Below are positions 117 to 53,224 of a DNA stretch of 64,000 nt, piece after piece. How positions within the stretch are numbered: position 1 is the stretch's first letter; every line of letters begins with the position of its first letter. The stretch is from Oedothorax gibbosus (lineage: Eukaryota), in the NCBI GenBank assembly GCA_019343175.1, contig JAFNEN010000097.1:29448-93447 (forward strand). The letters are read 5' to 3'. The notes below the pieces were generated by a model, which saw only the letters and a program-made list of their open reading frames with translations, was not told the origin of the DNA and did no database searches. A program made the position numbers and the translations under genes.

Positions 117-167
117 AAACAAATCAAAGAAAAACCTAAACAGGTATCAAAAGCCAAAGCAAAACAG
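117..167 (+). CDS. Candidate internal coding exon of a lysine-rich multi-exon gene (KQIKEKPKQVSKAKAKQ)
   Basis: Polypyrimidine tract and AG acceptor (ttttacag) at 111-116 and GTAAAT donor at 168. Open 51-nt frame, multiple of 3. Composition matches the other K-rich exons downstream. Confidence 0.3.
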
Positions 168-769
168 GTAAATAATTCACAAATCATTAAAATTCAATTC
201 TGATTTTAATTATGATTATCATATGTTTTCTAAGAATATGCGAGTTTCGGATCCAGGACAGTAGATATTGGTTTTAGTGAAGTTGAAAAACTTGTCATTA
301 AGTTTATTCTATAATCGTTCGTAGTTTAAAGTTTTTTCTGCAGCTGTCCCACATGCTGCATTTTAACTTTTCCAATTTTGCTTTTGTTTTCTTTATAATT
401 CATTGGGGAAAAAAAGAAATTCCAAAGGCAAAAGGTATCGATTGGTAATCAATGTAGTGGGCGAAGCTCACCGTGTTAAGCCACCAATCACCGAAACCAT
501 CACTGAAATACAGGAGTGAAATCAGGAATGAATTAAGTCCCATAAAACAAGCCAATTGATTTGAAACAAATACTTTGCGAGCGAGTGTCCGAGTACTTCC
601 GATCCTGTTCAGTTCGAAAAAAAAGCGAAGTTCATTATAAACATAATTGGGTAATGTTAGAAAGGCGTTATTTCAAATAAGGATTTGAATACCCCTTAAA
701 CTATTGGTCTATTTTCGTTTTTTTTTCAACAATTAATTATATAACAAAAAAACTAACTACCTAAACTCC

Positions 770-1050
770 TCGGCGTAACAGCCTGTTATTGGGCCAAGGC
801 CTACCGTTCCCATTTCAGCTTACGTGACCAAGGGATCTGGGGTGCTAGGCATATATCGTGGTTTGGTGATCAATCTCGCGCGGAAAGCCGAGTGTTTAGT
901 TCCCAAGCATGATTTGTCCTCAGTTTATCTACCTACTTAAGGGATGAAATTATGAGTCCAACACGCACAATCCGGGACACGGTCCCCGAACCTGTGGCAT
1001 TGCAATGCGAAGCTCTACCACTAAGCCACTGGGCCTTTTCCACTGGGCCA
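770..1050 (-). mobile_element. tRNA-derived SINE-like element (head resembles tRNA-Ala(UGC)); 5' boundary approximate
   Basis: The minus strand reads ggcccagtggcttagtggtagagcttcgcattgcaatgccacaggttcggggacc, with A box TGGCTTAGTGGTAGAGC, anticodon loop ttgcaat and B box GGTTCGGGGACC. There are no intact acceptor stems. Confidence 0.5.
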
Positions 1051-1967
1051 CTTACTTAACTAATTTTATAAAAAAAAATAGTAATTATGTTTATAGAATG
1101 GTATCTCTACAATTCTACAATATGTTTAAATTTCATGCCTTGGGTCTTCGCTTATGAAATAATGAATACATTTTCACTTTTTTTCTTATTTTACAGTAAG
1201 ATTGGTTTATGCAAGTATACAGCAACATTTATCGATAAAAATATTCCATATAATTTTAAAGCGCAAAGTACTGCAGGAAATTCCTTACCGTCTCTTTTCC
1301 CGAACGTAATGTTTAGTTTGGTGCTCTGGAAATCAGATTTATTTGCAAAAAAATAGATAAATTTGAATTTTAAATTAAACTAATACTATTTCCTAACAAA
1401 AAAACTGCTACGAAATTTTGGTTTTTCACATTTAAAATGGGGATTTCTCATCCCTTATTTTCATCCATTCTCATCCATTTATTTTCAGATTAACCTAAAT
1501 ATTAACAGTTTTTTAAGCTGTTTAGAATATCGATTAAACTGGACCAGTTTAACCCAAAGCTTTAAATGACCGGCGGAGCTAGAAATGTTCGCTCTCGAAG
1601 GGCTGAATTGCTCGCGTTCGAAGAGTTTGAATTAAATTCCTTCCTTAGTTTTGGTATAACACTACAAAATTTCATGGGTCTTATAAAAGTTCTTACGAGA
1701 TTTCTTTTAAAATGGCATAAAGCACCTTCAAAACTTTAGTAGCATCAATGAACAAAAAAGAACATTGTTTAATAGTACAGCAGAGGGATAAAACAATCAA
1801 CCCTGCGTTTTTCGGCTGCTATTGGTCAAGGAATTTTGTGAAAGGTGTCAAATTACAATATCAGTGAACGATGTAGATTTCCATATTTGCACCCCCTTCT
1901 CTTGTATTGAAAATTGAGTCTCTTTTTTTTAGACAACCGTAACATATCTTTTATTTTAATTCTCTAG

Positions 1968-2075
1968 GTGAAGCCTAAACAAGAAATAAAACAAGAAGTC
2001 ATCGAAATAGATGATGTCAGTTCAAAGAGTGGAAATCTAACGACGAGGCTAAATCGAAACGGCGGGCGTCAAGAG
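1968..2075 (+). CDS. Coding exon, cassette copy 1 (VKPKQEIKQEVIEIDDVSSKSGNLTTRLNRNGGRQE)
   Basis: tctctag acceptor at 1961-1967 and GAG|GTAATG donor at 2076. 108 nt, phase 0. Homologous to the exons at 5778 and 12066, flanking intron sequence included. Confidence 0.45.
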
Positions 2076-2098
2076 GTAATGGCAACCCTATTATTATA

Positions 2099-3777
2099 CC
2101 CCTGGCAAAAAGTATCCGATCACCGAAAGCAGTGCCTACGATACGTTCACATCAGTCGTCATTTTTTTTACAATTTTAATATTTTTTCAAACCTTAGAGG
2201 GTTTTTTGTGAAATATGACTAAATTTGTCAAGGAATATTAAATATAAACAGAATATAAAATTATAGTTAACAATTTTCACGAGAAAATACATTGAATCGT
2301 GAAGGAAAAAAGTTTCCGATCATCCTTTTGTGGGGAAAAAAATATTCGATCGCTAGCAAATGCAACGTATTTTAAGTGATATATGCAATTTTTTTTGGTC
2401 GGCGCGTGCGTACAAGATCTAAGTAAACAGTATAAAAGGTTGAATCGTTGTTTCACAGTTAAAACTAGTTTCGAATAAGCAAAAGTATGGATCGAAAGAA
2501 AGAATTGTCTTAAGAGCTAAAACTTTTAATTGTTAAACGCTTGAAAAGCGGAATATCTCAAAGAAAGGTTGCTCACACTTTTGCCTGTGCCCAAAGTACT
2601 GTTTGCGATTTTTGGAAAAAATATCGATCTACTAATGATGTCAAAAATCTTCCTCGAAGCGTTGGCCCACGTGCAACATCAAGTAGGTAAGACAAAAAAT
2701 CGGTTGATCTTGCCAAATCTATGAGAAGTTGTGCGTTGAAAGAACTTAATACCGAGTGATAGAAATATCGGGTAAAGGTATGTGCACGTACAGTGCGAAA
2801 CCGTTTAAACGCAAAACGATTTCACTTCTGCAAAGCCAAAACGAAACCATATATGGCTAAAAACCATAACAAAAGTCGTCTACAATGGTGCAAGAAACAT
2901 AAAAGCTGGTCTTCTGATGATTGTAAGAAGGTTATTTTTAGTTATGAATCTCGTATCTGCCTAGAAACTGGAGATGATGTTGGAATCTGTGTGGAGGAGA
3001 GCTGATGAAAGGTTCAAAAAAGATTGCCTCAAAACTAAAACTAAATATCAGCGTTCATTTTATAGTGTGGAGTTGTATGACTTCCGAAAGAGTCGGTAAA
3101 ATGTGTATAGTGTCGCGAACAATTAATTCTGAAGTGTATATTGACATTTTAGAACATTTTTTGATTCCTACCATCGAGGAAAGGTTTGACGACTCCTCCT
3201 ATTTCAATTTATCAAGATGATAACGCATCATGTCATCGAAGTAAACTGGCCAAGAATTTCTTAAATCGAAATGGAAATTCTCCAATAAAGACTATTGATT
3301 GGTCTGCAAATAGTCAGGATCTCAATATAATCGAAAATGTTTGGAATGTTTTGAAAAGAAACATTGATGAGAGAAGACCAACAAATATGGAAAAACTACG
3401 GCTAGCCATCAAGGAAAGCTGGAGTGAACTTCCATCAAATTTATGCCACGAGTTGGTCGCATCCATGCCTCGGTGCTTAAAAGCAGTAATCAAGGCATAA
3501 GGAGGACCCACTAAATATTAAAGTGACTTGATCGAATACTTTTTTCCCCAAAAAGGGATGATCGGAAACTTTTTTCCTTTACGATTCAATGTATTTTCTC
3601 GTGAAAACTGTTAACTATAATGTTATTTTCGGTTTATATTTAATATTCTTAGACTAATTTAGTCATATTTCACAAAAAACCCTCAAAGGTTTGAAAAAAA
3701 AAAAAATTAAAAAATGACGGCTGATATGAACGTATCGTAGGCACTGCTTTCGGTGATCGGATACTTTTTGCCAGAGG
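2099..3777 (+). mobile_element. Tc1/mariner-like DNA transposon (~1.68 kb) with ~140-bp terminal inverted repeats and a decayed transposase
   Basis: Left end 2099-2240 and right end 3640-3777 are near-perfect reverse complements (cctggcaaaaagtatccgatcaccgaaagcagtgcctacgatacgttca...). The internal ORFs encode a Tc1-type DDE transposase. Confidence 0.85.
2466..3500 (+). pseudogene. Tc1-family transposase pseudogene, frameshifted and with stop codons
   Basis: N-terminal HTH-like stretch (..ISQRKVAHTFACAQSTVCDFWKKYRS..) is interrupted by stops. The C-terminal part is split over three frames (ORFs 2793-3005, 3005-3220, 3186-3500) and contains YQDDNASCHRS and NSQDLNIIENVWNVLKRNI, matching the Tc1 DD34E catalytic motifs DNAPCH and SPDLNPIENLW. 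Confidence 0.75.
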
Positions 3778-4496
3778 TTGTACTGACGATGTTCATCTAG
3801 AACAAAATGCTTAACTGATAGAAACACACTGAGTTCAGTGTGCAAATAGACCAAAAACACATGTAAATAATCCTTATTCACAAAGTGAATAAGGTTTAAT
3901 TCTAGCATCCGTTGGCGAGATTATGTTCACCCTTTTTTTAGCTTGTCGTTTTGAAAAGACACAACCTAAATATTACCTTTTTCGACTTGGAGATTTCCCC
4001 CTAAATGCTTTCAAAATTAATGCTTTAATATCTCATCAAATAATGCAAAATAAATAATTATTTTTTATATCTGGGGTATTTTGAAGGTGCTGAACATTTG
4101 TATGTAAAAAAAATTGGGTGCTGCCTTTAGAAATTTCAAAGTTGGTACTCATTTTAATATGCAAACGACCCCATACCCTTTTTGTTGCCATTAATCAATT
4201 CCTAATGCTATTTTCTGAAAAATGGTTTTCTTTCACAAAAGCCCTTGATCAATAGCAGCCGAGTAACGAGGAGTGAAGCGGTTTTTTCCCCAGCTGTACC
4301 TTTGCTAAATATTTATCGGTTCACATAATATCAAAATCCATAATGTTTTCATCCAATGAAAATATTATTTTTTTTAAATAAATGAAATATTTAGGGTGCA
4401 GAAATCGTTTCCTGAAAAGCTGTTAAGGTTTACAGATTTTGTTTTAAATCATAGAAAGTTAATAAGTTTATTGGAATAATATTTTCTCTTTTACAG

Positions 4497-4583
4497 ATAA
4501 AATCCAAGCAACAGGCCAAGGTCACAAAGACCAAAAGGACAAGGAAGGACAAAAAGGCCACCAAGAGGCAATCCCAAGCAAAG
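4497..4583 (+). CDS. Coding exon of the lysine-rich gene (IKSKQQAKVTKTKRTRKDKKATKRQSQAK)
   Basis: ttttacag acceptor at 4489-4496 and AAG|GTAAAT donor at 4584. 87 nt, phase 0. Basic, K/R-rich and probably a nuclear-localisation-like segment. Confidence 0.45.
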
Positions 4584-5777
4584 GTAAATCATTCTTCATT
4601 ATGTAAAATACAATTACTTATAAAGCACAATAAGTTATCAAGTAATAAAGTATCAAAATGATACATCTAATGAATCGAAGTATTTTCTTACTTTTGATAC
4701 TTTTAGCCTACCTTTCTTTCTTTAAAATTCGAAAGAATTTTTAAACAATGAAAAAGAAGGCATTGACATGCTGACGATGTCCGTCTGTCCATCCGTACGC
4801 CCTTTCCAAAATTGTTTTTTTTGCATTAAAATTTGGTTAGTTAAATTTACATTACTTATTTTTTAAGTGCTGTTCAGTGTGTTCCCCCTATTTCAAAATA
4901 GCCTATGACTTACCCGATGTATGTTTCCGCGGCATCTCAAACAGAAATACGTAGTTAGAATGGTATGTACACATATGCACCATAGATGCAATGTATGAGG
5001 ACAATATAGATGTTTCCGCATCTGCATGTTTCTATGTTACCCGCGCTGTTACCCAAACTAGATTTGAAGAGTTACGTTAAGAAAAAGTTAACATGAATTT
5101 ATTGAAATCCAACAATACTTTTCCTTTAACTCGAAACACAAAATAGTACACAACCTTTACCTGGAACTCCCGACTGATTCCTAGCTTTTTAGCTTCCACA
5201 CTACGTTTATAACGTAAAAAGTGAAAAGATACGCTGTTAAAAAATTCTTTAATTCTTTTAAATATAAATTAAAAGAAATTTTATTTTTGCGACATCAGTC
5301 AGTTTGAAATGACGTCAAATATACTTCACTAGGAGATTCTTTGTTTGTATGCTGATATGAAATGTTTTGGTTCTATTTAAAAGAGAGGAATGTTACGTAT
5401 TTATTCTTTGAAATATAAATTTTATTTTTGCAAACGATAATAATTATTAATGAAATAATCATTGAATTCTCAAAATAAAATAAATGAAACTAGCCAAATT
5501 TACCTTGTAAATGTTTATTATAGAATTAATATTGTGTTTGGCGACTTTTTTCCTGTTGAACACAAATGTTGTGGGGAAGCGCGCTCGGTGACAGATTCTG
5601 TTACAAACCTACTTGTTTGACTTGACATAGACGAGAGAGATTGGTTACGTTAGTCAGTCCTAGAGAGTAAAGCATTCGAAGTACCTTCGATTTCCATATT
5701 TGCACCCCATTCTCTTGTATTGAAAATTTAGTCTCTTTAGAGACAACCGTAACAGATATTTTATTTTAATTCTATAG

Positions 5778-5879
5778 GGCAAGCCTAAACAAGCGGTTCT
5801 TCAAGTTAAAACTGTGGAGTCAGAAGAAAAGGAGAAGGCGGAAAGGGCTCGATTTTTACAGATGCAATTTCGTATCGAG
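5778..5879 (+). CDS. Coding exon, cassette copy 2 (GKPKQAVLQVKTVESEEKEKAERARFLQMQFRIE)
   Basis: tctatag acceptor and GAG|GTACGA donor. 102 nt, phase 0. Paralogous to the exons at 1968 and 12066. Confidence 0.5.
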
Positions 5880-6122
5880 GTACGACATATATTGATTTAA
5901 AAATAAAGAGAAGTTTTTTAAATCTTACTCCACGTAGTTGGTACATTGACACACGCTGTAATAAAAATTTGTTACTTTTACGGAAAAAAAATACTGTTAT
6001 TTTCTTTGAACAGTTTTTTCTATAATAATATTCTTTTTAAAATAATAACTATATTTTACTAGTTTTTCACCGCGTAAAGATGACTAGACTGCAACCGAAT
6101 AACGATTTTAACTGTTTGTGAA

Positions 6123-6262
6123 AACTAAGCTTGCCGAAACTTCTTATTTGGAGAGCGATGGACTGAAGATCTAAAAATCCGTGGCACGAGACCGTGTTCA
6201 GTAGTTTATTAATCCTCGGTAGTTATTGTGGTCAATATCCCCGCCTGTCACTGGGGTGACTG
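6123..6262 (+). mobile_element. tRNA-Phe-derived SINE-like element (degenerate copy)
   Basis: cttgccgaaacttcttatttggagagcgatggactgaagatctaaaaatccgtggcacgagaccgtg resembles tRNA-Phe(GAA), with the A box, the CTGAAGA anticodon loop and a decayed T arm. The better copy is at 12421. Confidence 0.5.
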
Positions 6263-7096
6263 AGAGATATAAAATTTCATTTTTTTCCTTCGTACAATTT
6301 ATCTGTTAAAAAACTTCTTTTGCGATCAAATTACAAATTGTTCATATAAAATAAAGAGATTATTTCTGTAAATTATACAGATTTTTTCTGGCACAAAAGC
6401 TAACAGTTTTTTTCTTCTGTAAAAACAACATACTTTTTTAACAGTACAGAGGGTTCGGCAAGATGACTAAAGGCAATACTTTCAAATTGAAAAATTATTA
6501 TATTTGAATAGAATTATATTTTATTTATTATATTTGAATTTGAAAGATCCACAGAAACAGTTTAAGATTTTAAGTGGTCAATTTTTCTGTTATAAGATTG
6601 TTTTTTTCTATTCTAGTGTGTATGTGTAATTGATTGCATTGTCAATTAGACATTGAGGCTGAAATTTAACTGAAACGCTTCGAATTCGCACCAGATTGAC
6701 CTGCAAATACGATCGGTTTGAGCTCCGCCCTGCAAACGCTCTCAAAAAACCGTATTTAACTTCTCAAACCACGCGAATTCGTGCTCAAGGGCGTGTCATT
6801 CGAGCATTCGATAAGAATACTACACCTGCCTCTTTTTACGTGAAGTTGACCAATGAAATAATTCGAAAATCACTGGATATATAGAGAAGAGCCAATCCCG
6901 TTCTTAAGATTCATCCAAAGCGTTTACGTTCTTTTCAATGAATCGTTTAAAAAAACGAATCTTTTGATTCGTTCTTTTTTGGCCAAGCGAGTTGGAACGA
7001 TTCGTTATCCAAACGATACATAATAAACTTCTTATTAGGCAAATCTATTGGGTTTCCCCTCACAGCTTAATAAGTTTCCGGTTGGGGTTTCTTTTT

Positions 7097-7180
7097 TTCT
7101 TGTAAAAATAATATGGTATTTGACATTTTTTAAGGTGTTCTTGTAAAAATAATATGGTATTTGACATTTATATTGAGTGC
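7097..7180. repeat. Tandem duplication, ~43-bp unit x2 (cttgtaaaaataatatggtatttgacatt)
   Basis: Direct sequence repeat. Confidence 0.8.
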
Positions 7181-8094
7181 GAAACAGTAAACAAACAGTT
7201 CGCACCCGATCGCTCGAATGGCCTGAAACCAATCGTGGCTTGACGTCATTCGCGCGCGACGGATTTGTTTCATTTCAATTGAAGAGCTTGGTGGAAGAAC
7301 GTGCTAAGTGACAAAAAGGTGAAAACGGGATAATGAGCTTCAAAGTTTTTAGTTTGCAACTTCTCTCTCATTCACAAAATTATAGTTTTTTTTTGCATGA
7401 TATTTTAGTTTGGTTTTTCAAAATGCTTGGTGGCTTTTGGCTTAACCGTAATTTACGTAATAACACGAAATTTACAAAACGCGCTTGACACCTCATGCAC
7501 TTGGCACGTTTTTCCTCCGAAGTGCTTCAGATTTTGGCAGTCGTTTAGTTCAAGAACGTGTTAAGTGACATTTTTGAGGAATTTTGGTCCATACCTGTTT
7601 CATAATTTCTGTACTAACCTTCCGATTTTCAAAATTCTTTTTCTGTTTGGAAGATAGGACTTCACAGATCTCTTTTATACTTTTTAATCGTTTGCCTGTC
7701 CGTCCATCATGTTGTCCGTCCATATCCCTTTCAATTTCCGATCCAAAGTGCCTGATTTTGAAAATTATTTTTTTGGTTCGAAGTAAAAAGTTAGATGACT
7801 ACAATGTATAGTGTTTAGCCACCTGCCTGTACGTCTGTTATTTTGTTTCTGTCCGTACGTCCTACTACCCTCCCCCCCCCCCAACTTCCTTTGTACCCGT
7901 CCAATTTTTAAAGTTATTGCTTTCATTTACCTAATATAAAATATAAGGTAATAAAACTATTGCGATGGGGGGTCAATAATCCAAAATGAATATTTTGTGC
8001 TTTCTACACGTTTTGGAGGGTGCTCATTCTAAAAAAATTGTTTTTTTTTTACATTGATCCGTCTGTCTGTCTGAAACTACTTTACAGTTCGAAA

Positions 8095-8370
8095 TAAAAG
8101 AGCTACGGACTTCCAATTTAGTACACGGGTTCCTAGTTCCTGTTGGGCGTCATAATAAGGTTTTCGAGAAAATTGCGCATGCGCAAGTAGAAGCTGCTAT
8201 AAAGTTTTTTTGGTTTTAAAGGTATTGCTGAACAACGAAAATAGATACATACTTCAAATTTGATACACGTGTTCCCTGTACTAGTCGGACGTCAAAATAA
8301 AGTTTTCTACAATATTGTGCATGTGCAAGGAGTAGCTGCCATAGAACTTTTTAGGTTTGAAAGTTATTGA
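8095..8370. repeat. Diverged tandem repeat, ~140-bp unit x2
   Basis: 'aaataaaagagctacggacttccaatttagtacacgggttcc...gcgcatgcgcaagtagaagctgctataaag' is followed by a diverged copy 'aaatagatacatacttcaaatttgatacacgtgttcc...gtgcatgtgcaaggagtagctgccatagaac'. Confidence 0.6.
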
Positions 8371-8388
8371 AAATACTTTATAAGGTAT

Positions 8389-8680
8389 ATAGGGTAGACT
8401 AACCAGTGAATGAACGCTTAAGCCAAGTGAATGAACAGTTCTTTACCAGTGAATGAACACAAAAATATCCAGTCAATAAACATGTTGGATTTTAATTAAA
8501 AACTAGATTCATTGACATTTTCATGCTCAGTATTTATTTTACAAGTCTTACTGACAACTAGAAAAAAGGTTTCTCCAATTCATCCAGTGGAATGATTTTC
8601 AATCCTTATTTTTTAAATGTATTTTCCAACTGTTCATTCACTGGGGCCTGTTGTTCACTCACTGGTCAGTCTACCCTATA
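8389..8680. mobile_element. MITE/foldback element (~290 bp) with ~30-bp TIRs
   Basis: Left end tatagggtagactaaccagtgaatgaac and right end gttcattcactgg..ctggtcagtctaccctata are reverse complements. The arms carry cagtgaatgaac subrepeats. Confidence 0.7.
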
Positions 8681-10803
8681 ACTTTTATATGAGCATATTG
8701 ATATATAGTGTTACACATCCCTAGTTTTTTTTTTAAGATATCAGTCACCTATCTTATATTTTTTGTACCTCCGTCTGCCCCTACTATAAGGATTTCTTTG
8801 AGTATTTAAGCTAAAAAAAAAGTAGGTTATATAAGTTATTTTAGAACTTCTTGCTTAATGTTAGATGAGTAAGTTTTTAATTGAAAATATTTTTAAAAAA
8901 TACCATTATCACTGAAATTATAAACTAAATACTTTGAAGAATAATAAGATAAATCAACTTATTAAAAAGTATACAAAAAGATAGTAAAAGAAACACAAAT
9001 GCATGTGAATGAAATAAATATTAAATTTAAAAGACTTATAAAAAAAAGATAATAATGCAAGATGTAAGTTTTCTCAAATTAAATTTTTAAATAGTTTTTG
9101 ATAAGAATAATCGAATTTAAAAACAAACTTTGATATTAAAAAAAAAGTAAAAATAAGTTGTATGGCAAGATATAGATCTTAAGGTTATTTACGTTTTTCT
9201 TTCTCCTTTTCAATTAAGTGTTTAATCAATTTTAAGAAAGCTATTTTAATTTACAGCATTTCTACAACAGTACAACATGATCGTTTAAACAATTTATTTT
9301 TACAATCGTGATGCATAGTACTTTTTTAAAGTCATCGATATTTTAATAAATATTATGAACTTATAACATTTTATATTTTGTTATTTTATTTTTACATCAA
9401 TTATTATAAAAATATTTTAGTTTTACCTAACAAAGCAATATCTTGATTAAATTTGTACTTACCTATAAGCTGCTATTCACACTTTCAAGCAAAAATTCAG
9501 TTTTCCGAATTGCTTCTTAATTCCATTTTAATAATTTTAGGAGTTTAGGACATTGCACAAAATGCGTTCGATAGCTTTAGATATCAAACATAAAATGGCT
9601 TTAAAACGATTTTTGTACCCATAATTCATTTTTTTAAACAAACCAGATGCTTTTAATGTTCGGTGCAATGTTGTTTTAACGCAAACTGCGATCTCCATAG
9701 AGCAGGTGCAACTTTGTTTTAATTATACCATCTGTTCGCTGCTAAATTATCTATGTTTATTACAATAAAAATCAGACGACATTCAAAGTAGACAATATTT
9801 TATAAAATGTTAAAACCTTTAATTCCGTCTAAATTTAAAATCAAAATGCATTTTTTTCCCTCTTTTGCTAAATGCACTCAAAGCCCAGTTTTACGCAATA
9901 TAAATTTTATTTTATTGATTATATTTAATAATTAAAGTTAATTAGGAAATATTAATTACATTTTGTTGAATTCTTTTTGATTAATACTACAAGAGAACCA
10001 TTTGTTTTGCTATTAATGCAAGCGAAAGTATGAAAATTTTCCGCAAACGTGTCACTTAGCACGTTTTTCCACTAAACGATCGTTCCGAAATCGGGCGATT
10101 TCGTTGGAAGAAAATGCTAAGGATCTTTAGCACGTTCTTCCATTGAAAAGTGACGAAAACGCGTGCACCTACCAACTTCGTATGCGAAAAATATACGAAA
10201 TCGAATGTTTTCTAAAAAATTGAAAGCTGTTATGTTTAAAGCAAGTAATAACATGATCATTGACACAAAAATCTCAATTTTTTCAAAAATGTCACTTAGC
10301 ACGTTCTTCCACTCAGCTCTTCAATTAGGAAATGAGCAAAATCTTCAAATCTCCACCCATCCGCAGGCGAATCGATCGCGTTGCGTTTCAGTTAAATTTT
10401 GCCCTAAGTGTGCTTATTTGTATGCCCCTCTCTAACTAAGGAGCTTTATGTACCAGCCTCAAGGTTCCTTGGATCTTAATAGAAAGGACTATGTGTGTCG
10501 TTTAAATAGGTTATTTATACTGTTTGCACCAAAGCGGTCGTGAGTAGATTTTTGAGTTTGACCGCATACTGGGGAGTCCTTATCATTTAAACGTTTAAGT
10601 TGGTGTAAATACGATTATGGGTTAGATGATGATAGAATGTTTGCTTGGTTCACGTTGATGGTATTATAATTTTCATTAAAAATCAAACTAAATTTGATAC
10701 TGTAATCTCTTCCAAAAAGTAAATTTGATGTAAAAAATTTTAGGTAAAACTAAAAGATTTTTAGGTGTAGATTTTGTTTAGCAACACGAAAAATTATATA
10801 CAG

Positions 10804-11552
10804 TACGTGTACCCAATATTGACAGTGCTCTTAATATGGACACCACTAATATCTTTGAAATGTAAATTTTTAATCGAGAGATAGTTACATGTCCGTGAAG
10901 AAAAGCAGTTAAAAATATTTTAGCCTGGAAAGTGCAAAAAAGCGCGTTGTTCTACCCTTTTGAAGGTAATTTATATTTTCGTGGTGTGGTGATCTTAATT
11001 ATAGGAATGCTTATATCCTTATGATATATTGTATAATTACTTTAAATATTTAAAAGTGGAGTGTTTTTTAAAGACTCTAAGACAAATTTAGATTGAAATG
11101 GTAAATATTGCTTGATAATGTCTTATAAGTATATTTACTATAAGATTTAGAACTACGCCTGATTCCCAATATGGACACCTTATGTCCCCTAGAAGTGTGC
11201 ACAGAATCTTCATATTCACAAATTTGTTACATATATATGTTTAATAGGATCTTTTTAGCTAATTGTTAATAAATTATTGTTCATACTAGTGACATTGCCG
11301 CACTTTGACGGTCTTCGGAGAGCCACAACAGAAAATGACCTCCTTCTAAATCGCCAGTTTTAAAGATATTTACTCTGTTCTCTTTCCTCCGCAATACTTT
11401 AAGATATTTTTTTTATACCTTCTCTTCTAAATCCCTTTAAAGAGAAAGTCTTTCATCCATTCTCCATAACAATCCACCCGTCCCTAATATGGACATGCAT
11501 GTCCATAATATTAATTAATTTTTCTTGGGGTGTCCATATTGGGTACAGGTAC
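10804..11552. mobile_element. Non-autonomous DNA transposon (~750 bp) with TIR GTAC(G/C)TGTACCCAATAT(T/G)GACA
   Basis: Left end gtacgtgtacccaatattgacag (10804-) and right end tgtccatattgggtacaggtac (11527-11552) are inverted. Subterminal copies of aatatggacac lie at 10845, 11170 and 11484-11503. There is no long ORF. Confidence 0.6.
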
Positions 11553-11700
11553 TATACTCATCAACAAGATTACATAGAAAAGTGTTTGAAAGGTTTTCAG
11601 TGTTTAAGTGTCCAATTTCGTCCTTGCCTATTTAAAAACATGTGGTTTTGTCTAAAAATGACTGTCCTTCAACCAAAGACGAATAACTAAATGAATCATT

Positions 11701-11800
11701 TACACTCTTAAAACAAACGAGCGGTTTTAACTCAGTCTGAGTTAATTTCCACTCCTTCGTGCCGAAATGCACTTCTCCTATAGAGTGAATTTCACTCTTT
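11701..11800 (+). mobile_element. Short MITE (family with 16-bp TIR ACACTCTTAAAACAAA), copy truncated at its 3' end
   Basis: Shares acactcttaaaacaaacgagcggttttaactcagtctgagttaatttccactcc...cacttctcctatagagtgaatttcactct with the full copies at 11839 and 21485. Confidence 0.7.
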
Positions 11801-11838
11801 TTCGGAGTGGTAAAGAAATAAAGAGACAATCTGCGTCT

Positions 11839-11948
11839 ACACTCTTAAACGAGCGTTTTACTCAGTCTGAGTTAATTCCACTCTTTCCGGTGCCGAAAAT
11901 GCACTTCTCCTATAGGAGTGAATTTCACTCTTTTGTTTTAAGAGTGTA
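11839..11948 (+). mobile_element. Short MITE, same family, tandem to the previous copy
   Basis: Ends in ...gaatttcactcttttgttttaagagtgta, which is the right TIR. Confidence 0.7.
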
Positions 11949-12065
11949 CCTTTACCGAAACATTATTGGTTGTCTATATAATTGATTGTCTAATATAACT
12001 GAAGTGTATAATATAATTAGTCTCTTTAGAGAAAACTGTAGCAGTTCTTTTGTTCAATTCTATAG

Positions 12066-12161
12066 AACCAGCGACAACAAGAAATTATAGTCAAAACCGA
12101 GCCTGAAGAAGAAGATGAGTATGAGAGAATGACGTTTTTGAGGATGCAATTTGGTTTGAAA
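12066..12161 (+). CDS. Coding exon, cassette copy 3 (NQRQQEIIVKTEPEEEDEYERMTFLRMQFGLK)
   Basis: tctatag acceptor at 12059-12065 and AAA|GTACGAC donor. 96 nt, phase 0. The FL(Q/R)MQF motif is shared with the exon at 5778. Confidence 0.5.
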
Positions 12162-12420
12162 GTACGACCTATATTGATTTTAAAATAAAGAGTTTTTTTT
12201 TAAATCTTACTCTACGTAGTCGATACGATGACACACACTGTAAAAAATGGGCTAATTTTACAGAAAAATACTTGTATTTACAAAAAATAACGTTATTTTC
12301 TTTGAACAGTTTTTTCTGTAAAAATGTTCTTTTTAAAGTAAAACCAATATTTTTTCGTTTTTAACCGCGTAAAGATGACTAGACTGCAATCGAACAACGA
12401 TTTTAACTGTTTGTGAAAAA

Positions 12421-12562
12421 CCAGCGTGCCGACACAGCTCAATTGGAGAGCGTTGGACTGAAGATCCAAAAGTCCGTGGCACGAGACCGTGTTCAGTAGT
12501 TTATTAATCCTCGGTAGTTATTGTGGTCAGTATCCCAGCCTGTCACTGGGGTGACTGAGAGA
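12421..12562 (+). mobile_element. tRNA-Phe(GAA)-derived SINE-like element
   Basis: GCCGACACAGCTCAATTGGAGAGCGTTGGACTGAAGATCCAAAAGTCCGTGGCACGAGACCGTG is close to canonical tRNA-Phe through the anticodon arm, then the T arm is degenerate. It is followed by the shared body ...tcctcggtagttattgtggtcagtatcccagcctgtcactggggtgactgagagata. Confidence 0.6.
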
Positions 12563-12819
12563 TATAAAATTTCATTATTTTTCCTACGTATAATTTCTCT
12601 GTTAAAAAAACAGCTTTTGCGTTAAAATGACAGATTGTTCATATAAATTAAAGAGACTATTCCTTCTGGCACACTAGTTAACAGATTTTTTTTTGTAAAA
12701 ACAACATACTTTTTTAACAGTACAGAGGTTTGGCAAGATGACTAAAGGACGATATTTTAAAATTGAAAAATTATTATAGTTGAATAGTTTAGTTTTATTT
12801 TTTTTTTAATTTTTTATTG

Positions 12820-13142
12820 TTTTAGTTTTAGTTTTAATTATCGTCGCACTAGAGCTACACGAGGGCTATTGGCGACGGGCGTCGTATTGTAGAACCGCAG
12901 TCAATTGACGAGCCGACACCTGAGTAGGCACCCAACGCAACCGTTAAGGGCGACATCGTACGCAACGTTAGAACTTTGAAGGATATTTAACGTGCACTCC
13001 CGCCACACGGGGTATTATCTGTCGGACATTTTGGCTGCACGGGCCGTTTAAAGATCGGCAGTTTTTTTGGCGATGCCCAGACCCGAACCTGGTACCTTCC
13101 GCACCCTAGGCGAATGCCTAAACGACTGGGCTCCCCAGCCCC
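12820..13142 (-). mobile_element. tRNA-derived SINE, family A, full-length copy
   Basis: On the minus strand the head is ggggctggggagcccagtcgtttaggcattcgcctagggtgcggaaggtaccaggttcgggtctggg, with A and B boxes. The tail is a gttttag-type simple repeat. Other copies lie at 35800, 36676 and 52845. Confidence 0.8.
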
Positions 13143-13439
13143 TTTTATTTATTGTACTTGAATTGTAGAAACAATTTAATATTTCCCACGCTTGCTGGTT
13201 GTTGGTAGGGTGGACCCAGATCTAAGATACCGCCTGTTTAACTCTTGAAAGTAACTATTTCTAAAGTAGAACTTAGAAAACAGACTTTTTTTTTAAATAA
13301 TAAACAAAAAAAACTCAACGTCTTCATCATGTTAAGTTAATCATGTTCTAGTTAATCATGTTCACGAAACAGCTTAAACCCTTGTGTATTTTCAAATGTA
13401 AAAGCCTAAAAAGTAGTTGTGAGTTGCCGTACGGCCTAC

Positions 13440-13640
13440 TCAGCTAATAGAGAAGTCCTCAGTAACGTCACGCTAGCTGTCCTGTTCGAAGTGTCGGCTA
13501 TTGCAAAGAAGAAGAAACCTGCTTGTGCACGTTTAATATTACTTTTCGTATTCCGAACTGGTTTCGATGGTGTGTTTGTTTTTGTTCGATTTTAACCGTA
13601 TATGTTTTTGTTCGCCTGTACGGGATTTTTTCCCCTTGGC
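13440..13640. mobile_element. Diverged relative of the MITE at 23420 (shares ..gtcctgttcgaagtgtcgg...gaagaaacct..)
   Basis: About 70% similarity to the 23425-23500 segment. Boundaries are uncertain. Confidence 0.35.
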
Positions 13641-14001
13641 GTTCCATAATACTTTTATATAGTTTCTTTGTCATTTTTTTTAATAATAAAGATTATTATT
13701 ATTATGTTAATTTGTTACTTCTAAAGAATATGTAAAAACAAGAAAACTTTACTAATACAGCAATTTCGATTAGCTAGCTGCTAAAAAAGGAAAAATAATA
13801 TATAACCGAAAATAAATAATAAAATATAAAGGAAAAATCCTTTCAATTGCAAAGATATTGACTGAATTGACTATCTATTGACTGAATCATTAACTAAAAC
13901 AACCAATAATTAAAGATTTATGTTCAATGTCCCATTCATAATCTGTCTCATTCTTGCCACCTCTCTCCTATACATTTTTATTATTTTTATTTTACAGCCA
14001 G

Positions 14002-14097
14002 GAAGGAACCGTTTACAAAACTATACAACATATTAAAATAAAGTCAAAAATAGTCTCTCAACGTAGTAAGAATCAAGATGCGTCTTATCAGCCGCAG
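14002..14097 (+). CDS. Candidate penultimate coding exon (EGTVYKTIQHIKIKSKIVSQRSKNQDASYQPQ)
   Basis: Tandem NAGNAG acceptor (tttacagccag); only the second AG gives an open frame. CAG|GTTAGC donor at 14098. 96 nt, phase 0. Confidence 0.3.
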
Positions 14098-14765
14098 GTT
14101 AGCTTTTCATTCTTGTAGCATTATTAAATCATATATTACTACTATTTTACATCAAACTCAAAAAATTTGTCTGTTTAACGAAAACATTTGAATGCTTAAA
14201 CAAAGCCTCCAGACGGCCAGTGATGTCAAAGCCATGCTAAACGAAGTTTTCCTAGTAAACCTAGTAAATCTGCCGGCAATATAGAATTATTTTATTCAAA
14301 TATTATCTTTTTTATTTTAGTTTCTTAATTAATTTTTAACAAATTAAATTGTTGAATATTAATGTTATCTCTTAAAATCAAGCACTAATAATGCGGATTT
14401 TTCTCAATAAACCACGAAAAATCTAAAACATATATTATATCAGCTCAAGCAATCACAATAGAGAAAGAAGTGAACAATTCTTTAAAAAGTTTTTATTTTT
14501 AAAAAAAAAACTGAGAACCAAGACCATAGTACCAAGGACAAAAATACCTAAAAATGTACGTGAAACCTACAAATTAAAATTGCGAGAATAAATATAATTC
14601 AAATATTTAATTTGCATCGGGGATCAACATCCTATTTGTGTTTTTTATGCTTTTGTAAAACTTACTTTTTGTGTTATTATTAGTTAGTGTTATTCTGTGG
14701 TGTAAATACGAGAGAATGTATATAAATATTAATTTGTGTGTGATTTCTATTTCAGCCTCGTGGTA

Positions 14766-14864
14766 GTAACCAAATCCAATCCATCGAAGAAGACCTTGAG
14801 CAAATTCGAAGTTCGTTCGACTTTTCCCACCCTCAAGAGGATAGTTCTAGTTAGACTAAGTTCT
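14766..14864 (+). CDS. Candidate terminal coding exon (PRGSNQIQSIEEDLEQIRSSFDFSHPQEDSSS*)
   Basis: tttctatttcag acceptor at 14754-14765. The frame is open until TAG at 14862-14864. An AATAAA-like signal lies ~95 nt downstream (14957). Confidence 0.4.
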
Positions 14865-15620
14865 GGAAGAATTACCACCTAATGGGTTTGCGTTTTTATT
14901 GCTTTTTTTCACGGATTTGAGAGACTATTCATTTTGAAAGTCAAATTTAAGCCAAATTTTACATGAAAATAAATTATTATATTATTAAAAAATGTATAAT
15001 ATTTAGCATCGGTGGCAGCAATCTTGAATAAGAGGTGAGCTTAAGCCGCCCGTCAAGAAAGAAGCTTCAAGAAAAAGTGTCAAAAGTATACCATTTGTAT
15101 ACAGTATTTTACTATTCTACAATTTTTATTTTTTGATTATTGTGATAATTGTGATACCAGTTTTTATAACTGCAAATTAGTATAGAATTAATAAATATTG
15201 GGTTTGCATTTTTATTGTATCTTTTTTAAAGAATTTGAGAGAATTTATATATTTGAAAGTCAAATTCCAACAAATTTTTGCATGAAAAAAGTTATAAGCA
15301 TCGTTAAAAAATGTATAACATTCAACAGTCCTTCAAATTTGGCCACTTTTTCTCTTAAGTGTTTTTATTAAGTATTTTGTATGAGAATGGCTCACCTTTG
15401 AATTGTTCCTAAACTCATTATTTTACTACAAAAATTCCCTTTTTTTTAAAATTTTCTTGTCGTACAAAATACTTCTTACCTATGTTTTCGTCCATTTGAG
15501 CTTCTCTGGCTACATTTTTTTGTCTCAAATAAACCAATCGATTGGTTTAATTTAAGGATTGCAATCCTAACTTAGAAATTAACTTAAGATTGCAATCCTA
15601 AGTAACATAATTATCATACA

Positions 15621-21484: not shown

Positions 21485-21604
21485 TACACTCTTAAAACAA
21501 AAGAGTGAAATCCACTCCTATAGGGGAAGTGCATTTTCGGCACCGGAAAGGAGTGGAAATTAACTCAGACTGAGTTAAAACCGCTCGTTTGTTTTAAGAG
21601 TGTA
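21485..21604 (-). mobile_element. Short MITE, full-length copy of the ACACTCTTAAAACAAA family, minus orientation
   Basis: Reverse complement of the 11.7-kb copies. Both 16-bp TIRs are intact. Confidence 0.8.
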
Positions 21605-23419
21605 GGAGACTTCGGAGACTGTGAGTTTTGTGCAACTACACTCTTTAAATACTGTATACTGTGTGTTTGTATGCACTCAGAATTCCTGCAAGTCCAAAGT
21701 AAACGATGTACAAATATCCACTAAAAATTTAAAATATAAAAAATGTATTTCTACTATACGATAGATTTACCCAAATCGTTATGTTATGCCAAAAATCAAC
21801 ATATATCAGAGGATTTAAAGTTGTTAAATTAAGATAACACATGTGAGTTTACTAACAAACTTGAGGCCCCCGAAGTGCATACAATCAGTTCTTTCTCTAG
21901 AGTTTATATAAGTGCACATTGTTACACATATGTTAGTTCTGTTAAGTGCTTTCTTATTTTTTATTTTGTTAATATTAGTGTGGTATATAAAAAAAACTTA
22001 TTGAAAAACCTTATTAGCTGGTAACCTGGTTTCATACATTTAATTTTTTAACAAAAAAGTTTAGAAAAGTTAGTTAAAAAGTTTTTACCAACTAATTAAA
22101 CTAATTAAACCCTTCTTTTTGGTCTCAAAATTTGAAACGAACTATAAAAAAGTAAAATTTTAAGATTTTTTTCAAAAGTTTTGTAAAGCTAATAATGTGC
22201 CAATTCTTACTACATAGTCTACAAATGATATATAGATATTGTTTTTCTGATAAGTTAATTTTCGTAATGCTGACGGAGAAATATTGAAAATTTAAACCTA
22301 TAAGTTATTATTAAGGTTAATTAAACTAAGGTTATTAAGGTTACAACATGACCCTTAAATGTAAAAAAGGCATTATTTAATGAGCACCATTAAGAAAAGT
22401 TGAAATACAATATATTTTCAATGTTACAGTAAATAATTATTTGTTTCAATTTTATGTCCTAATTTATTTAATATAATCCTAGAAATAAGTAAAATCAAGC
22501 TTTTACATTTAATAGCCCGTCGGAACAATTTTCGGAAAAAATCTAAAAATGTAACATTTTGTATTTTTTAATAAAATGTTAAAGGCTGCACGGCAGGCTT
22601 AATTATATCCTAAAGAACTAAAACTCCGTGCATTTCTTTTTCATTCATATTTTTAAAAAATAATTCACTAATTAAAAATAATAACTTTAACAAATGCCAC
22701 AAATTGCTTTTTTAAGTATTTCCTGAATGGTTCATTGTAATAGTTTGGACAGCAATTCATACGACAGAAGGTCATTCTTTAAGTAACTTAAAATTTGATG
22801 TTTTAATAATAGTATAGTTGTTATCTGAATAAAATAAACAAGATTCAAAAAAATTGGGACCAAATAAAAAAATTTGAAAAAATCGAACCAGGAAATAAAG
22901 TTTTTTCAAAAAGAGGAATTTTTCTGTATATTAATTTTTGTACAATTTTTTGTAGTTTTTATATTTAAAATTAGGTTTGTAAAACAATTCTCCGGTTTTT
23001 ATTCACTTGTAGAAAATTTCCATTTGGTTAGTTATCGCCAAGAACGCACCCTATTTATACCATTGTCTCATTCTATGTGTGATATTGTGAGCTTATTTGT
23101 ATAATTGTAATGATTGGTGTAATAAATAAACTTTAATGTCTAAATATGTATTTAGATACTTTAAATACATTGCATTAAATACATAGCTTTACAAACATTC
23201 TAAATGATTAATGTTACATTTTTACCAAAAATACCTAACAAGAGAAGAACTCGTGTAAAAATATGCTTCCAAATTGAAAGGAAAGGTCTAATTTTTTTAC
23301 AAGAACAGGGGGGCAATTTAGTTAGGCCATTTAAAAAACCTCATAAAACTCAAATAAGTTACGTTGGTATTCACCAGTTAAAAATAAACTCAGAATAACC
23401 ACGGCTTACACAACTTATA

Positions 23420-35795: not shown

Positions 35796-35799
35796 AAGA

Positions 35800-36013
35800 G
35801 GGGCTGGGGAGCCCAGTCGGTTAGGCGTTCGCCTTGCATGCGGTAGTTCTCAGGTTCGGCTCCGGGCATGCCAAAATAACTGCCGGCCTATAAACGGCCC
35901 GTGCAGCCAAAAATTTCCGACGAATAATACCCCATGTAGAGGGAGTGCACGTTAAATATGCTCCAAAGTTCCAACGCTGCTTACGAAGTCGCCCTGAATG
36001 GTTGCGTTGGGTG
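35800..36013 (+). mobile_element. SINE family A, 5' part (tRNA-like head) of a copy split by a hAT-like insertion
   Basis: ggggctggggagcccagtcggttaggcgttcgccttgcatgcggtagttctcaggttcggctccggg... is collinear with the reverse complement of 12890-13142 up to ggttgcgttgggtg, where the insertion begins. Confidence 0.8.
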
Positions 36014-36675
36014 CATTGGCGGATCCAGGTGGGGGGGACCAGGGGGCACGTTCCCCCCCCCTCCCCCAGAAAATGCAAAGTTACACCGGATATTATTGAA
36101 TTTTCTAATTAAATAATTGATAAAGTCTATTTCTTTCTTAATTTTTGGTGGGAAAACGTACATTACACATTCTGAAAGACGTCATAATCCAGAAGACACA
36201 AATCTGTCAAAATCACGATATTACGCAAAGTTAAAGAAAAGAATTAACGAAAAGTAGCCAATCACAAAATTCGACGCAAATAAAATTTCGGAAATATTTT
36301 TTTTATTTATTAGGAGGGTGGCGCCGTTTATATTCCACACGTGCTATCTAACGGTGTATTTTTTTGTAAATGTTTTATTTTTAAGGTTTTGAGTTTGCTT
36401 ATATTATCCAAGTAACAATAAGTGTTAGTTCAACTCGGAAGTTTTTTTACGCTGTTCTCTCATATATAATGCATCAAATTTCATAAGAAGATTGGATTAT
36501 AAGAGTAAGTTATTAGCTTCTATATTTAATCAATAAGTAAGTTCTTATTTATAAAATTTGCTTGCAATTGCCTCAGTGATATTAAAAAATAATAATAAGT
36601 TAAAATGTTCTTAGTTGCTGATTTATAATATTTGTGAAGGTGGCATGTTAAATACTATCTTGTGGGTTTGTGTTT

Positions 36676-36935
36676 AGTTTGAATTATCGTCGCACAAAAG
36701 CTACACGAGGGCTATTGGAGACGGGCGTCGTAATTTAGAACCACTATCAAGTGACGAGAGACACCTGAGTAGCACCCAACGCAACCGTTAAGGGCGACAT
36801 CGTACGCAGCGTTGGGACTTCGGAGCATATTTAACATGCACTTTCACTACACGGGGTATTATTCGTCGGACATTTTTTAGCTGCACGGACCGTTAGTAGA
36901 TCGGCAGTTATTTTTGCGATGTTTTAAGGAACTTG
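36676..36935 (-). mobile_element. SINE family A copy (head degenerate), nested inside the hAT-like element
   Basis: tttgaattatcgtcgcacaaaagctacacgagggctattggagacgggcgtcgtaatttagaacc...ggcagttatttttgcgatg is collinear with 12830-13080. Confidence 0.75.
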
Positions 36936-38628: not shown

Positions 38629-38745
38629 GTTGGGTGCCTACTCAGGTGTCGGATCGTCACTTGATTATGGTTCTAAAATTATGAAAAACGTCGCCAATAG
38701 CCCTCGTGTAGCTCTAGTACGACGATATTTCAAACTAACCTAACC
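38629..38745 (+). mobile_element. SINE family A, 3' part (body and tail) of the copy split by the hAT-like insertion
   Basis: gttgggtgcctactcaggtgtcggatcgtcacttgattatggttctaaaattatgaaaaacgtcgccaatagccctcgtgtagctctagtacgacgat...caaactaacctaacc is the reverse complement of 12820-12925. Confidence 0.8.
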
Positions 38746-51800: not shown

Positions 51801-52844
51801 ATAATGAAATTAATTACCATTTACTTATATTGTATTCCTTTAAAGACCAAATTATTTTTTGTTAAATATTGCTGAATATTTAACAAAATATTGTTGTATT
51901 ATTGTTGTTTTTATTTTATTGTTAAATATTAAGATTTATAAACCGATCCCCTACCCACAGTGCGGAGCAATGGACAAAAATCGAAAAAGACTTTTTATTT
52001 GAGAAGTTTAGTGAATGTAATATTGATCTAGGATAGTGATACCTGCGATAGTATCGTAAAACGGTATTTTTAAGTCCAAAGTAATTATAATAAAAGCATT
52101 AGAATTACGTAGAGATTAGTAAGATTTTATGGAGCGGTAAAAAATAGTGTTACGATCTATATATATAAAAGGCAAAGTCCTGACTGACTCACTCACTCAC
52201 TGATCTATTCATTCATTCATTCACGTATCAACCCCCATCCCAAACTACTGGAGGTAGAGCTACCAAATTTTAGGAAAATATTCTTTTATTATTCGCAGGC
52301 GTCATTTAAGAAGCGATTTTTCGAAATTCGAACCCGAACGGGTGTAGGAAGGCAAAACGTGAGCCGTTTTCTCCATAGGAATAGCATTGTTATGAACTTT
52401 TAATTTATAAATTTCGTTTTTTAATTTGAAAAAAATTTCAACGCGTTCAGCGTGAGCGAAAATTAAGTATAAACACGTCAGAGCACGTGAGTTTAATTTG
52501 TAGGATTGTTATTTGAATATCATTATTTTATTTATAGAATTTAAATCTTTTGATTTTTTTTTGTTACCGAATTTAATTTAATTGACGTTTACAAATGGTA
52601 AGAAATGAAGATATTGCTACAATGTCTGATGGCAGTAAAGGCGATAACTATTCTAGATATAATGAATACTTCGAAGAAATGTCGATTCTTTCTGTTTGTC
52701 TTTCATGTGTGAATGTTTATGAAACTATAAATTTGGTACAGATGATATAATGGCCGATTGAATTTTGGCATTGGCGGCTTTTGGCGAAGTTGAAAATTTA
52801 ACGTAAGGGAGGCTATTTGCATCCAGTTGTATGGGTTAGGGTTA

Positions 52845-53224
52845 GTTTGAATTATTGTCTCACTAGAGCTATACACGAGGGCTATTGGCCACGGGCGTCT
52901 TAATTTAGAACCACAGTCAAGTGACGAGCCGACACCTAAGTGGGCACCCAATGCAACTTTTAAGGGCAACATCGTACGTAGCGTACGGGACTTCGAAAAA
53001 TATTTAACGAGAACTCCCACCACACTTGGTATTGTGCGGGACACAGGGCATTTTTGGCTGCATGGGCCGTTTATAGGTCAGCAGTTATTTTGACGAAGCC
53101 CGGACCCGAGTCTGGGACCTATCGCATGCAAGTCGAATGCCTTTACCGACTGGGCTCCCCAGACGACACCTCCGGAGGTGTATCGGAGGTGTTGCCCCCT
53201 ATCGGAGGTGTTGCCCCAGCCCTG
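52845..53224 (-). mobile_element. SINE family A, full-length copy with a 2x tandem insertion (atcggaggtgttgcccc) in the head
   Basis: gggttagggttagtttgaattattgtctcactagagctatacacgagggctattggccacgggcgtc...gactgggctccccag...ccccagccc is collinear with 12820-13142. Confidence 0.8.

Follow-up and report, generated by a model that had tools for sequence, protein, structure and literature searches.

The question raised by this locus is whether a row of short open segments in AT-rich, transposon-laden DNA represents the coding part of a gene, and how one type of segment came to be present there in three copies. The segments lie within the first 15 kb of a 64-kb stretch of the genome of Oedothorax gibbosus, a dwarf spider (assembly GCA_019343175.1, contig JAFNEN010000097.1, positions 29,448 to 93,447 of the forward strand), hereafter the window, which has a GC content of ~31% and contains 34% T. 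We suggest, with a confidence only slightly above even, that an orphan gene missing from the annotation has its 3′ part at positions 117-14854 (+), and that it is composed of short symmetric exons, one type of which underwent local duplication. Such a gene would start upstream of the window, and its short phase-0 exons would be separated by transposon-laden introns of 0.7 to 6 kb. It would be restricted to its lineage and code for a charged protein rich in Lys, Gln, and Glu.

A chain of candidate phase-0 exons

Both strands of the window were scanned for all segments in which an AG is followed by an open frame with a length divisible by three (at least 48 nt) and then by a GT, and the 2189 segments obtained were ranked by a crude, generic matrix for acceptor plus donor. 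The chain consists of the following candidate exons, the first six with their splice rank, and of a hexamer beyond the last one:

117-167, + strand: candidate exon 1, KQIKEKPKQVSKAKAKQ; 51 nt, open in frame 0, acceptor ttttacag, donor gtaaat, T content 8%, rank 8 of 2189.
1968-2075, + strand: candidate exon 2, cassette copy 1, VKPKQEIKQEV...GGRQE; 108 nt, acceptor tctctag, donor gtaatg, rank 7.
4497-4583, + strand: candidate exon 3, IKSKQQAKVTKTKRTRKDKKATKRQSQAK, very basic (isoelectric point, pI, of 11.8); 87 nt, acceptor ttttacag, donor gtaaat, T content 5%, rank 1.
5778-5879, + strand: candidate exon 4, cassette copy 2, GKPKQAVLQVKTVESEEKEKAERARFLQMQFRIE; 102 nt, acceptor tctatag, donor gtacga, rank 18.
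12066-12161, + strand: candidate exon 5, cassette copy 3, NQRQQEIIVKTEPEEEDEYERMTFLRMQFGLK; 96 nt, acceptor tctatag, donor gtacga, rank 22.
14002-14097, + strand: candidate exon 6, EGTVYKTIQHIKIKSKIVSQRSKNQDASYQPQ; 96 nt, acceptor ccag (ambiguous), donor gttagc, rank 12.
14756-14854, + strand: terminal coding exon 7, PRGSNQIQSIEEDLEQIRSSFDFSHPQEDSSS followed by the stop; acceptor tttcag at 14755/14756, phase-0 frame, TAG at 14852-14854, no donor.
14968-14973, + strand: AATAAA hexamer, 114 nt past the stop, a possible polyadenylation signal.

This anatomy is observed directly. As the first-pass annotation had described, exons 1 to 6 are bounded by AG and GT, open, and divisible by three, and the chain of phase-0 exons holds as a structural description. 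Exon 7, however, had been placed 10 nt off, at 14766-14864, where the flanking dinucleotides are TA and GG rather than AG and GT; although the frame read there (VTKSNPSKK...) is open, it cannot be entered in phase 0 from any AG acceptor. The corrected exon reads PRGSNQ...EDSSS and then TAG, and the chain closes with this stop codon in its last exon and AATAAA downstream. The hexamer is weak evidence, since about one is expected per 600 nt at the base composition of the window. Within the exons, the T content is 5-23%, as compared to 34% in the genomic sequence, and it changes abruptly at the splice sites.

A direct repeat begins right past the putative stop (14868-14999 versus 15184-15318, ~132 nt, 77% identity), and the segment presumed to be the 3′ untranslated region recurs in this way 316 nt downstream, without a coding exon.

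When concatenated, the visible exons would encode a product of 212 aa with 16% K, 13% Q, and 11% E, a pI of 9.9, and a grand average of hydropathy (GRAVY) of -1.36, that is, a strongly hydrophilic protein, which we infer to be intrinsically disordered. The term lysine-rich, previously applied to the gene as a whole, fits exons 1 and 3, with K contents of 41% and 34%, but not the entire 212-aa product, with its 16%. These two extremely basic exons alternate with exons 2, 4, 5, and 7, which are mixed or acidic, exons 5 and 7 being the acidic ones.

Probable local duplication of one candidate exon type

Three copies of a repeat, the structure of which is directly apparent from the alignments, surround or enter exons 2, 4, and 5:

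1876-1983, + strand: repeat patch of copy 1, comprising 92 nt of upstream intron and the first 16 nt of exon 2; 89% identical to 5689-5793.
5689-6540, + strand: repeat unit of copy 2, comprising upstream intron, exon 4, and ~660 nt of downstream intron.
12005-12814, + strand: repeat unit of copy 3; homology briefly resumes at 13143-13164, beyond an inserted repeat.

The three exons are all located on the + strand in phase 0-0, measure 108, 102, and 96 nt, respectively, and lie within 10.2 kb. We propose that they derive from one exon type through local segmental duplication together with flanking intron; both the direction of these duplications and the transcription, splicing, and translation of the putative exons are what we infer from the sequence. 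Duplication of an exon along with its flanking intron, as claimed in the first-pass annotation, is supported at the flanks and exon edges by the 108-nt match at 89%, the intron part of which is 92% identical over 92 nt, and by a match over 830 columns between 5728-6535 and 12017-12814 (about 80-89% identity). Copies 2 and 3 have in common ~50-60 nt upstream of the exon, the final ~25 nt of the exon itself, and the ~655 nt that come after it; beyond the interruption follows a 22-nt resumption (6519-6540 versus 13143-13164, 91% identical). Apart from the latter, the remainder of introns 4 and 5 displays no further homology, nor does the region downstream of exon 2 match those downstream of exons 4 and 5, and no further copies of the cassette are present in the other 49 kb of the window. 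Unlike this locally confined cassette, the true dispersed repeats of the window are found in 4-5 copies each.

The paralogy previously claimed for exons 2, 4, and 5 together with ~100 bp of upstream intron is valid for the flanks and exon edges, but the exon bodies taken alone are not significantly similar. At the protein level, the FL(Q/R)MQF(R/G) motif is indeed common to exons 4 and 5; of the (V/G)KPKQ motif, which had been attributed to all three paralogues, KPKQ occurs in exons 1, 2, and 4, but exon 5 begins with NQRQQ. Similarly, the notion of a recent cassette amplification captures the local duplication but is too simple, given that the exon bodies are at background similarity and copy 1 comprises the 108-nt patch only. 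The similar intron ends might also stem from an introner-like transposon, but this was judged less parsimonious, because the flanks of copies 2 and 3 keep their order and near-equal spacing (102 versus 96 nt), with the similarity entering both exon edges.

Exons 1 and 3 show no significant similarity to the cassette that would identify them as additional paralogues. Their 3′ ends, together with the starts of the following introns (150-199 versus 4569-4615), align with a local score of 32, against a shuffle maximum of 33, which hints, short of significance, that the exon pairs (1, 2) and (3, 4) might stem from an older two-exon duplication.

The downstream introns of copies 2 and 3 carry the following elements:

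6133-6202, + strand: tRNA-Phe(GAA)-like segment, copy 2; aligns to the copy 3 segment and to generic tRNA-Phe, alone below the Rfam threshold.
12428-12498, + strand: tRNA-Phe(GAA)-like segment, copy 3; Rfam RF00005, 30.7 bits versus a gathering score of 29.
12822-13146: dispersed repeat of ~320 nt, copy 3.

The anticodon loop of the tRNA-like segment is CTGAAGA, carrying GAA, and ARAGORN found no tRNA at 12428-12498, which indicates that the segment is degenerate. Copies 2 and 3 had been described as including ~0.7 kb of downstream intron with a tRNA-Phe-derived short interspersed nuclear element (SINE). The ~655 nt of shared intron and the tRNA-Phe origin were corroborated, but the dispersal typical of a SINE was not, since the window contains two copies only, both within the duplicated unit. 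The unit shared by copies 2 and 3 would have spanned at least 850 bp, with the tRNA-Phe-like insertion already present before copying. As the repeat at 12822-13146 interrupts the homology between copies 2 and 3, it was inserted after the duplication. Its family has at least 5 copies in the window, the others being located at 35796-36014 (-), 36673-36921, 38629-38738 (-), and 52836-53162; by eye, it has a tRNA-related look, but there was no Rfam match at E ≤ 1.

An element of ~100 nt occurs twice in tandem (11701-11801 and 11838-11934) right before copy 3, at the upstream limit of its homology with copy 2, and a third time at 21499-21605 (-).

Exon bodies more divergent than their introns

The divergence between the copies is distributed unequally, and this, too, is a direct observation. 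When copies 2 and 3 are compared, identity is 86% in the upstream intron and 88.6% in the downstream 655 nt, as opposed to 64% in the exon (34 mismatches over 95 aligned positions; Fisher p = 2e-8 for exon versus intron identity), and in a sliding window the exon body lies at the background level of 55-62%. The proteins encoded by exons 4 and 5 share 45% identity over 31 aa (E = 5e-4 within the window), and the 6-nt difference in length between the two exons keeps the frame. In a codon-aware alignment, the differences number 15, 7, and 16 at codon positions 1, 2, and 3, respectively, with the proportion of nonsynonymous differences (pN) being ~0.30-0.36 and that of synonymous differences (pS) ~0.6-0.8; judging from the latter, synonymous sites also appear to be more diverged than the introns. 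When the observed number of changes was simulated under neutrality, the frame stayed open in ~13% of cases, and both stayed open and had a T content of ≤22% in ~2%. All three copies, though diverged, have kept the frame, the acceptor, and the donor. The contrast between exons and introns is not what uniform neutral decay would predict.

Following duplication, the exon bodies would have diverged ~3 times faster than the flanking introns while retaining the frame and the splice sites, and two causes can be envisaged. The duplication may have been recent, corresponding to ~12% neutral divergence, and followed by accelerated or relaxed protein evolution, possibly with slippage in the GAA/GAG/AAG-rich codons. 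Alternatively, the paralogous exons may be old, with their flanks homogenized later by patchy gene conversion. Conversion is suggested by the sharp boundaries of the 108-nt patch shared by copies 1 and 2 and by the discordant relationships among the copies, whereby copy 1 is nearest to copy 2 upstream of the exon and copy 2 is nearest to copy 3 downstream. One paralogous pair of ~100 nt, in which the synonymous positions appear over-diverged as well, does not discriminate between positive selection and intron conversion. Under either cause, the process acting on the exon bodies would differ from uniform neutral decay, which mildly favors function.

A more ambitious interpretation, which we regard as rather unlikely, is that the locus belongs to a real, fast-evolving gene restricted to Oedothorax, with a hypervariable exon cassette on a conserved intron scaffold evolving under diversifying selection, its exon bodies diversifying several times faster than the neutral DNA next to them. 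Hypervariability of this kind occurs in venom, reproductive, or immune proteins; here, it would concern a basic disordered protein, and O. gibbosus is known for its male reproductive dimorphism.

Coding gene or chance open frames

The same observations have to be weighed against the possibility, which we do not dismiss but lean against, that there is no gene at all. In that case, the open frames would have arisen by chance in A-rich, transposon-laden DNA of intergenic or intronic nature, the repeats would reflect neutral local duplication, and the excess divergence would result from small conversion events or slippage in a purine-rich tract. Chance open frames of 30-36 codons are expected in ~5-9% of starts at the composition of the window, in which 2189 segments are present, and the resemblance between copies 1 and 2 amounts to a bare 108-nt patch. 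On the other hand, the six ranked segments are located on one strand, in order and within 15 kb, none of them exceeding 23% T, and few chance segments outside the locus combine a comparable splice score with low T. The retention of the frame, acceptor, and donor in the three diverged copies, the frame-preserving difference in length, the closure of the chain with a stop in its last exon, and the lowest number of changes at codon position 2 are likewise at odds with a chance origin, and the threefold local excess of divergence would require extra ad hoc events under neutrality.

Several results weigh against our interpretation of the locus as part of a gene. There is some circularity in the rank statistic, in that splice features originally served to pick the exons, and exons 2, 4, and 5 depend on each other; comparable splice scores also occur in chance segments outside the locus, such as 52299-52358 (8.6). 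A second CAG is located 4 nt upstream of the acceptor of exon 6 (13995-13997), and its use would shift the frame into a stop. A-rich DNA yields lysine-rich open frames for free. The similarity of the exon bodies alone is not significant in any pairing of the three copies (p = 0.055 for exons 4 and 5, and 0.08 and 0.9 for the others), and their common descent is accepted mainly because they are placed between two homologous flanks at near-equal spacing (102 versus 96 nt). With regard to codon usage, exons 1-6 carry no signal, scoring between the 48th and 75th percentiles of the chance segments under a log-likelihood model trained on the ARMC5-like open reading frame (ORF) of the window only, a single gene of very different composition; exon 7 alone scores high (99th percentile).

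Homology searches add to the same side. The protein search with the concatenated exons, which the first-pass annotation had proposed as a check, was run and retrieved no homologue: for the 212-aa product, there were no matches in a word-indexed search of 5.8 billion clustered proteins, none in a full phmmer search against 1.84 billion representatives, and no Pfam families at E ≤ 1. The joined long open segments of the first 15.5 kb (at least 40 aa on the + strand and at least 52 aa on the - strand, with transposons left out) did not match any protein in a database including the GenBank proteome of O. gibbosus; hence, the RNA-seq-guided annotation of this species puts no protein in 1-15.5 kb. 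The lack of homologues, domains, annotated proteins, and codon-usage signal over the region is what would be expected if the open frames were fortuitous. Splice-site and phase arguments are by themselves insufficient to establish a gene at this locus. Nevertheless, the clustering of the exons is unlikely to be random, even after allowing for the circularity.

Between a coding gene and no gene lies a further possibility, namely, that transcription and splicing take place at the locus but that it lacks, or has lost, a coding function, as in the case of a young de novo transcript, a long noncoding RNA, or a decaying gene. The good splice sites, the orphan status of the sequence, and the lack of a codon-usage signal are all compatible with this scenario, as is the insertion of a transposon next to exon 2:

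2098-3778: decayed Tc1/mariner transposon, 22 nt past the exon 2 donor, with terminal inverted repeats of ~254 nt at 91% identity.

The transposase ORF of this element survives as fragments (HTH_Tnp_Tc3_2, 1.2e-6; DDE_3, 8.2e-8), and since it is broken, the copy is dead. However, all seven segments are open in one consistent phase and the copies have remained in frame despite ~36% divergence, so that we deem a spliced noncoding locus quite improbable and retain the coding gene as the preferred interpretation.

Exon 2 and the Tc1/mariner element are together flanked by a 70-nt inverted repeat (1775-1844 versus 4230-4299, 76-79% complementary). In a transcript, the repeat could cause exon 2 to loop out; equally, it may consist of two oppositely oriented fragments of one repeat family.

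Possible alternative use of the paralogous exons

In the first-pass annotation, the duplicated exons had been tentatively proposed to be used in a mutually exclusive or variable manner. In such a model, exons 2, 4, and 5 would form a mutually exclusive or otherwise regulated alternative cluster, with the conserved upstream element acting as the selector (PMC6071210). Each of the paralogous exons is indeed preceded by a conserved intron element of 50-90 nt with a small hairpin (GTCTC-TTTA-GAGAC), and duplication of an exon together with adjacent intron has been proposed as a route to competing RNA structures (PMC6071210; Ivanov and Pervouchine). Yet the paralogous exons do not form an uninterrupted row, as exon 3 is located between exons 2 and 4, and their unequal lengths (108, 102, and 96 nt) are all multiples of three, which makes co-inclusion neutral with respect to the frame. 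Nothing on the + strand of the 64 kb matches the conserved 22-nt core in reverse complement at ≤3 mismatches, in a search that was not exhaustive for weaker or longer-range pairings. Furthermore, the conserved element covers the expected region of the branch point and polypyrimidine tract (CGTAAC ~25 nt before the AG), which suffices to explain its retention. Mutually exclusive use of these exons, therefore, is not upheld; we consider it very improbable, and the duplication-generated selector model is a formal possibility only.

The likeness to the docking/selector clusters of the Dscam type (PMC6071210) consists in a conserved intronic element before each paralogous exon, inherited by duplication. 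Unlike in those clusters, no docking site was found in the window, and the exons are non-adjacent, unequal in length, and frame-compatible with co-inclusion.

Comparison with known exon duplications

Genes encoding disordered, charged proteins with one exon per repeat include those for treacle and Nopp140, with their acidic-basic repeats, and the PEVK exons of titin. The putative gene described here has similarly short in-phase exons, each with ~17-36 charged low-complexity residues, and alternating basic and acidic units, but the likeness is one of architecture only, without sequence homology.

Exons evolving faster than introns have precedents in the genes for snake venom phospholipase A2 (PLA2) isozymes and conotoxins, where evolution is accelerated, and in the primate opsin genes, where introns are homogenized by conversion. 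As in these genes, the introns flanking the cassette exons are far better conserved (86-92% identical) than the exon bodies (~55-64%). Unlike in those cases, there is a single paralogous pair of ~100 nt here, and the putative gene is known from its sequence alone. If the exons are real, the locus would provide a compact example of introns being better conserved than exons, one that could help to tell gene conversion apart from accelerated protein evolution.

The copying of symmetric exons in tandem, along with adjacent intron, has been amply described as a way in which genes evolve and is common in animals. Such duplications are said to have been treated also by Kondrashov and Koonin in 2001 and by Letunic et al. 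in 2002. Tandem (intragenic) exon duplication in animal genes has been reviewed by Ivanov and Pervouchine (PMC9013439). The cassette resembles these duplications in that same-strand, phase 0-0 candidate exons of 96-108 nt were copied with adjacent intron, all of them symmetric and frame-safe. It differs from typical cases in that its copies lack strict adjacency, its exon bodies have diverged far more than its introns, and the putative host gene is unannotated and without homologues. The locus bears on no long-standing open question.

Neighboring gene and genome annotation

Further downstream in the window, an intronless and intact ORF of 1169 aa (59337-62846, +) encodes a protein with the ARM_ARMC5 and BTB domains (Pfam). 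The corresponding GenBank entry, hypothetical protein JTE90_029159 [Oedothorax gibbosus] (801 aa), is identical to the ARMC5-like ORF only over residues 95-859 and diverges thereafter; the deposited model seems to be missing the N-terminus and the BTB-containing C-terminus. The GenBank proteome of O. gibbosus was built by BRAKER2 with RNA-seq guidance (bioRxiv 10.1101/2021.02.09.430505). With a model that is shorter at both ends than the intact ORF, a missed gene elsewhere in this annotation becomes credible. If the exons at 117-14854 are real, a missed orphan gene would be added to the annotation of O. gibbosus.

Other repeats in putative intron 4

A 20-nt motif, GTCACTTAGCACGTTCTTCC, occurs in four copies, at 7293-7312 (-), 7550-7569 (-), 10051-10070 (+), and 10291-10310 (+), with 0 expected by chance. 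The copies constitute inward-facing subterminal repeats around ~3 kb of putative intron 4 (7262-7313 and 10290-10343), and the bracketed segment is probably a non-autonomous DNA transposon or a foldback element. The same putative intron contains a pair of 53-nt inverted repeats (8388-8440 versus 8628-8680, 81% identity), ~190 nt apart, resembling a miniature inverted-repeat transposable element (MITE).

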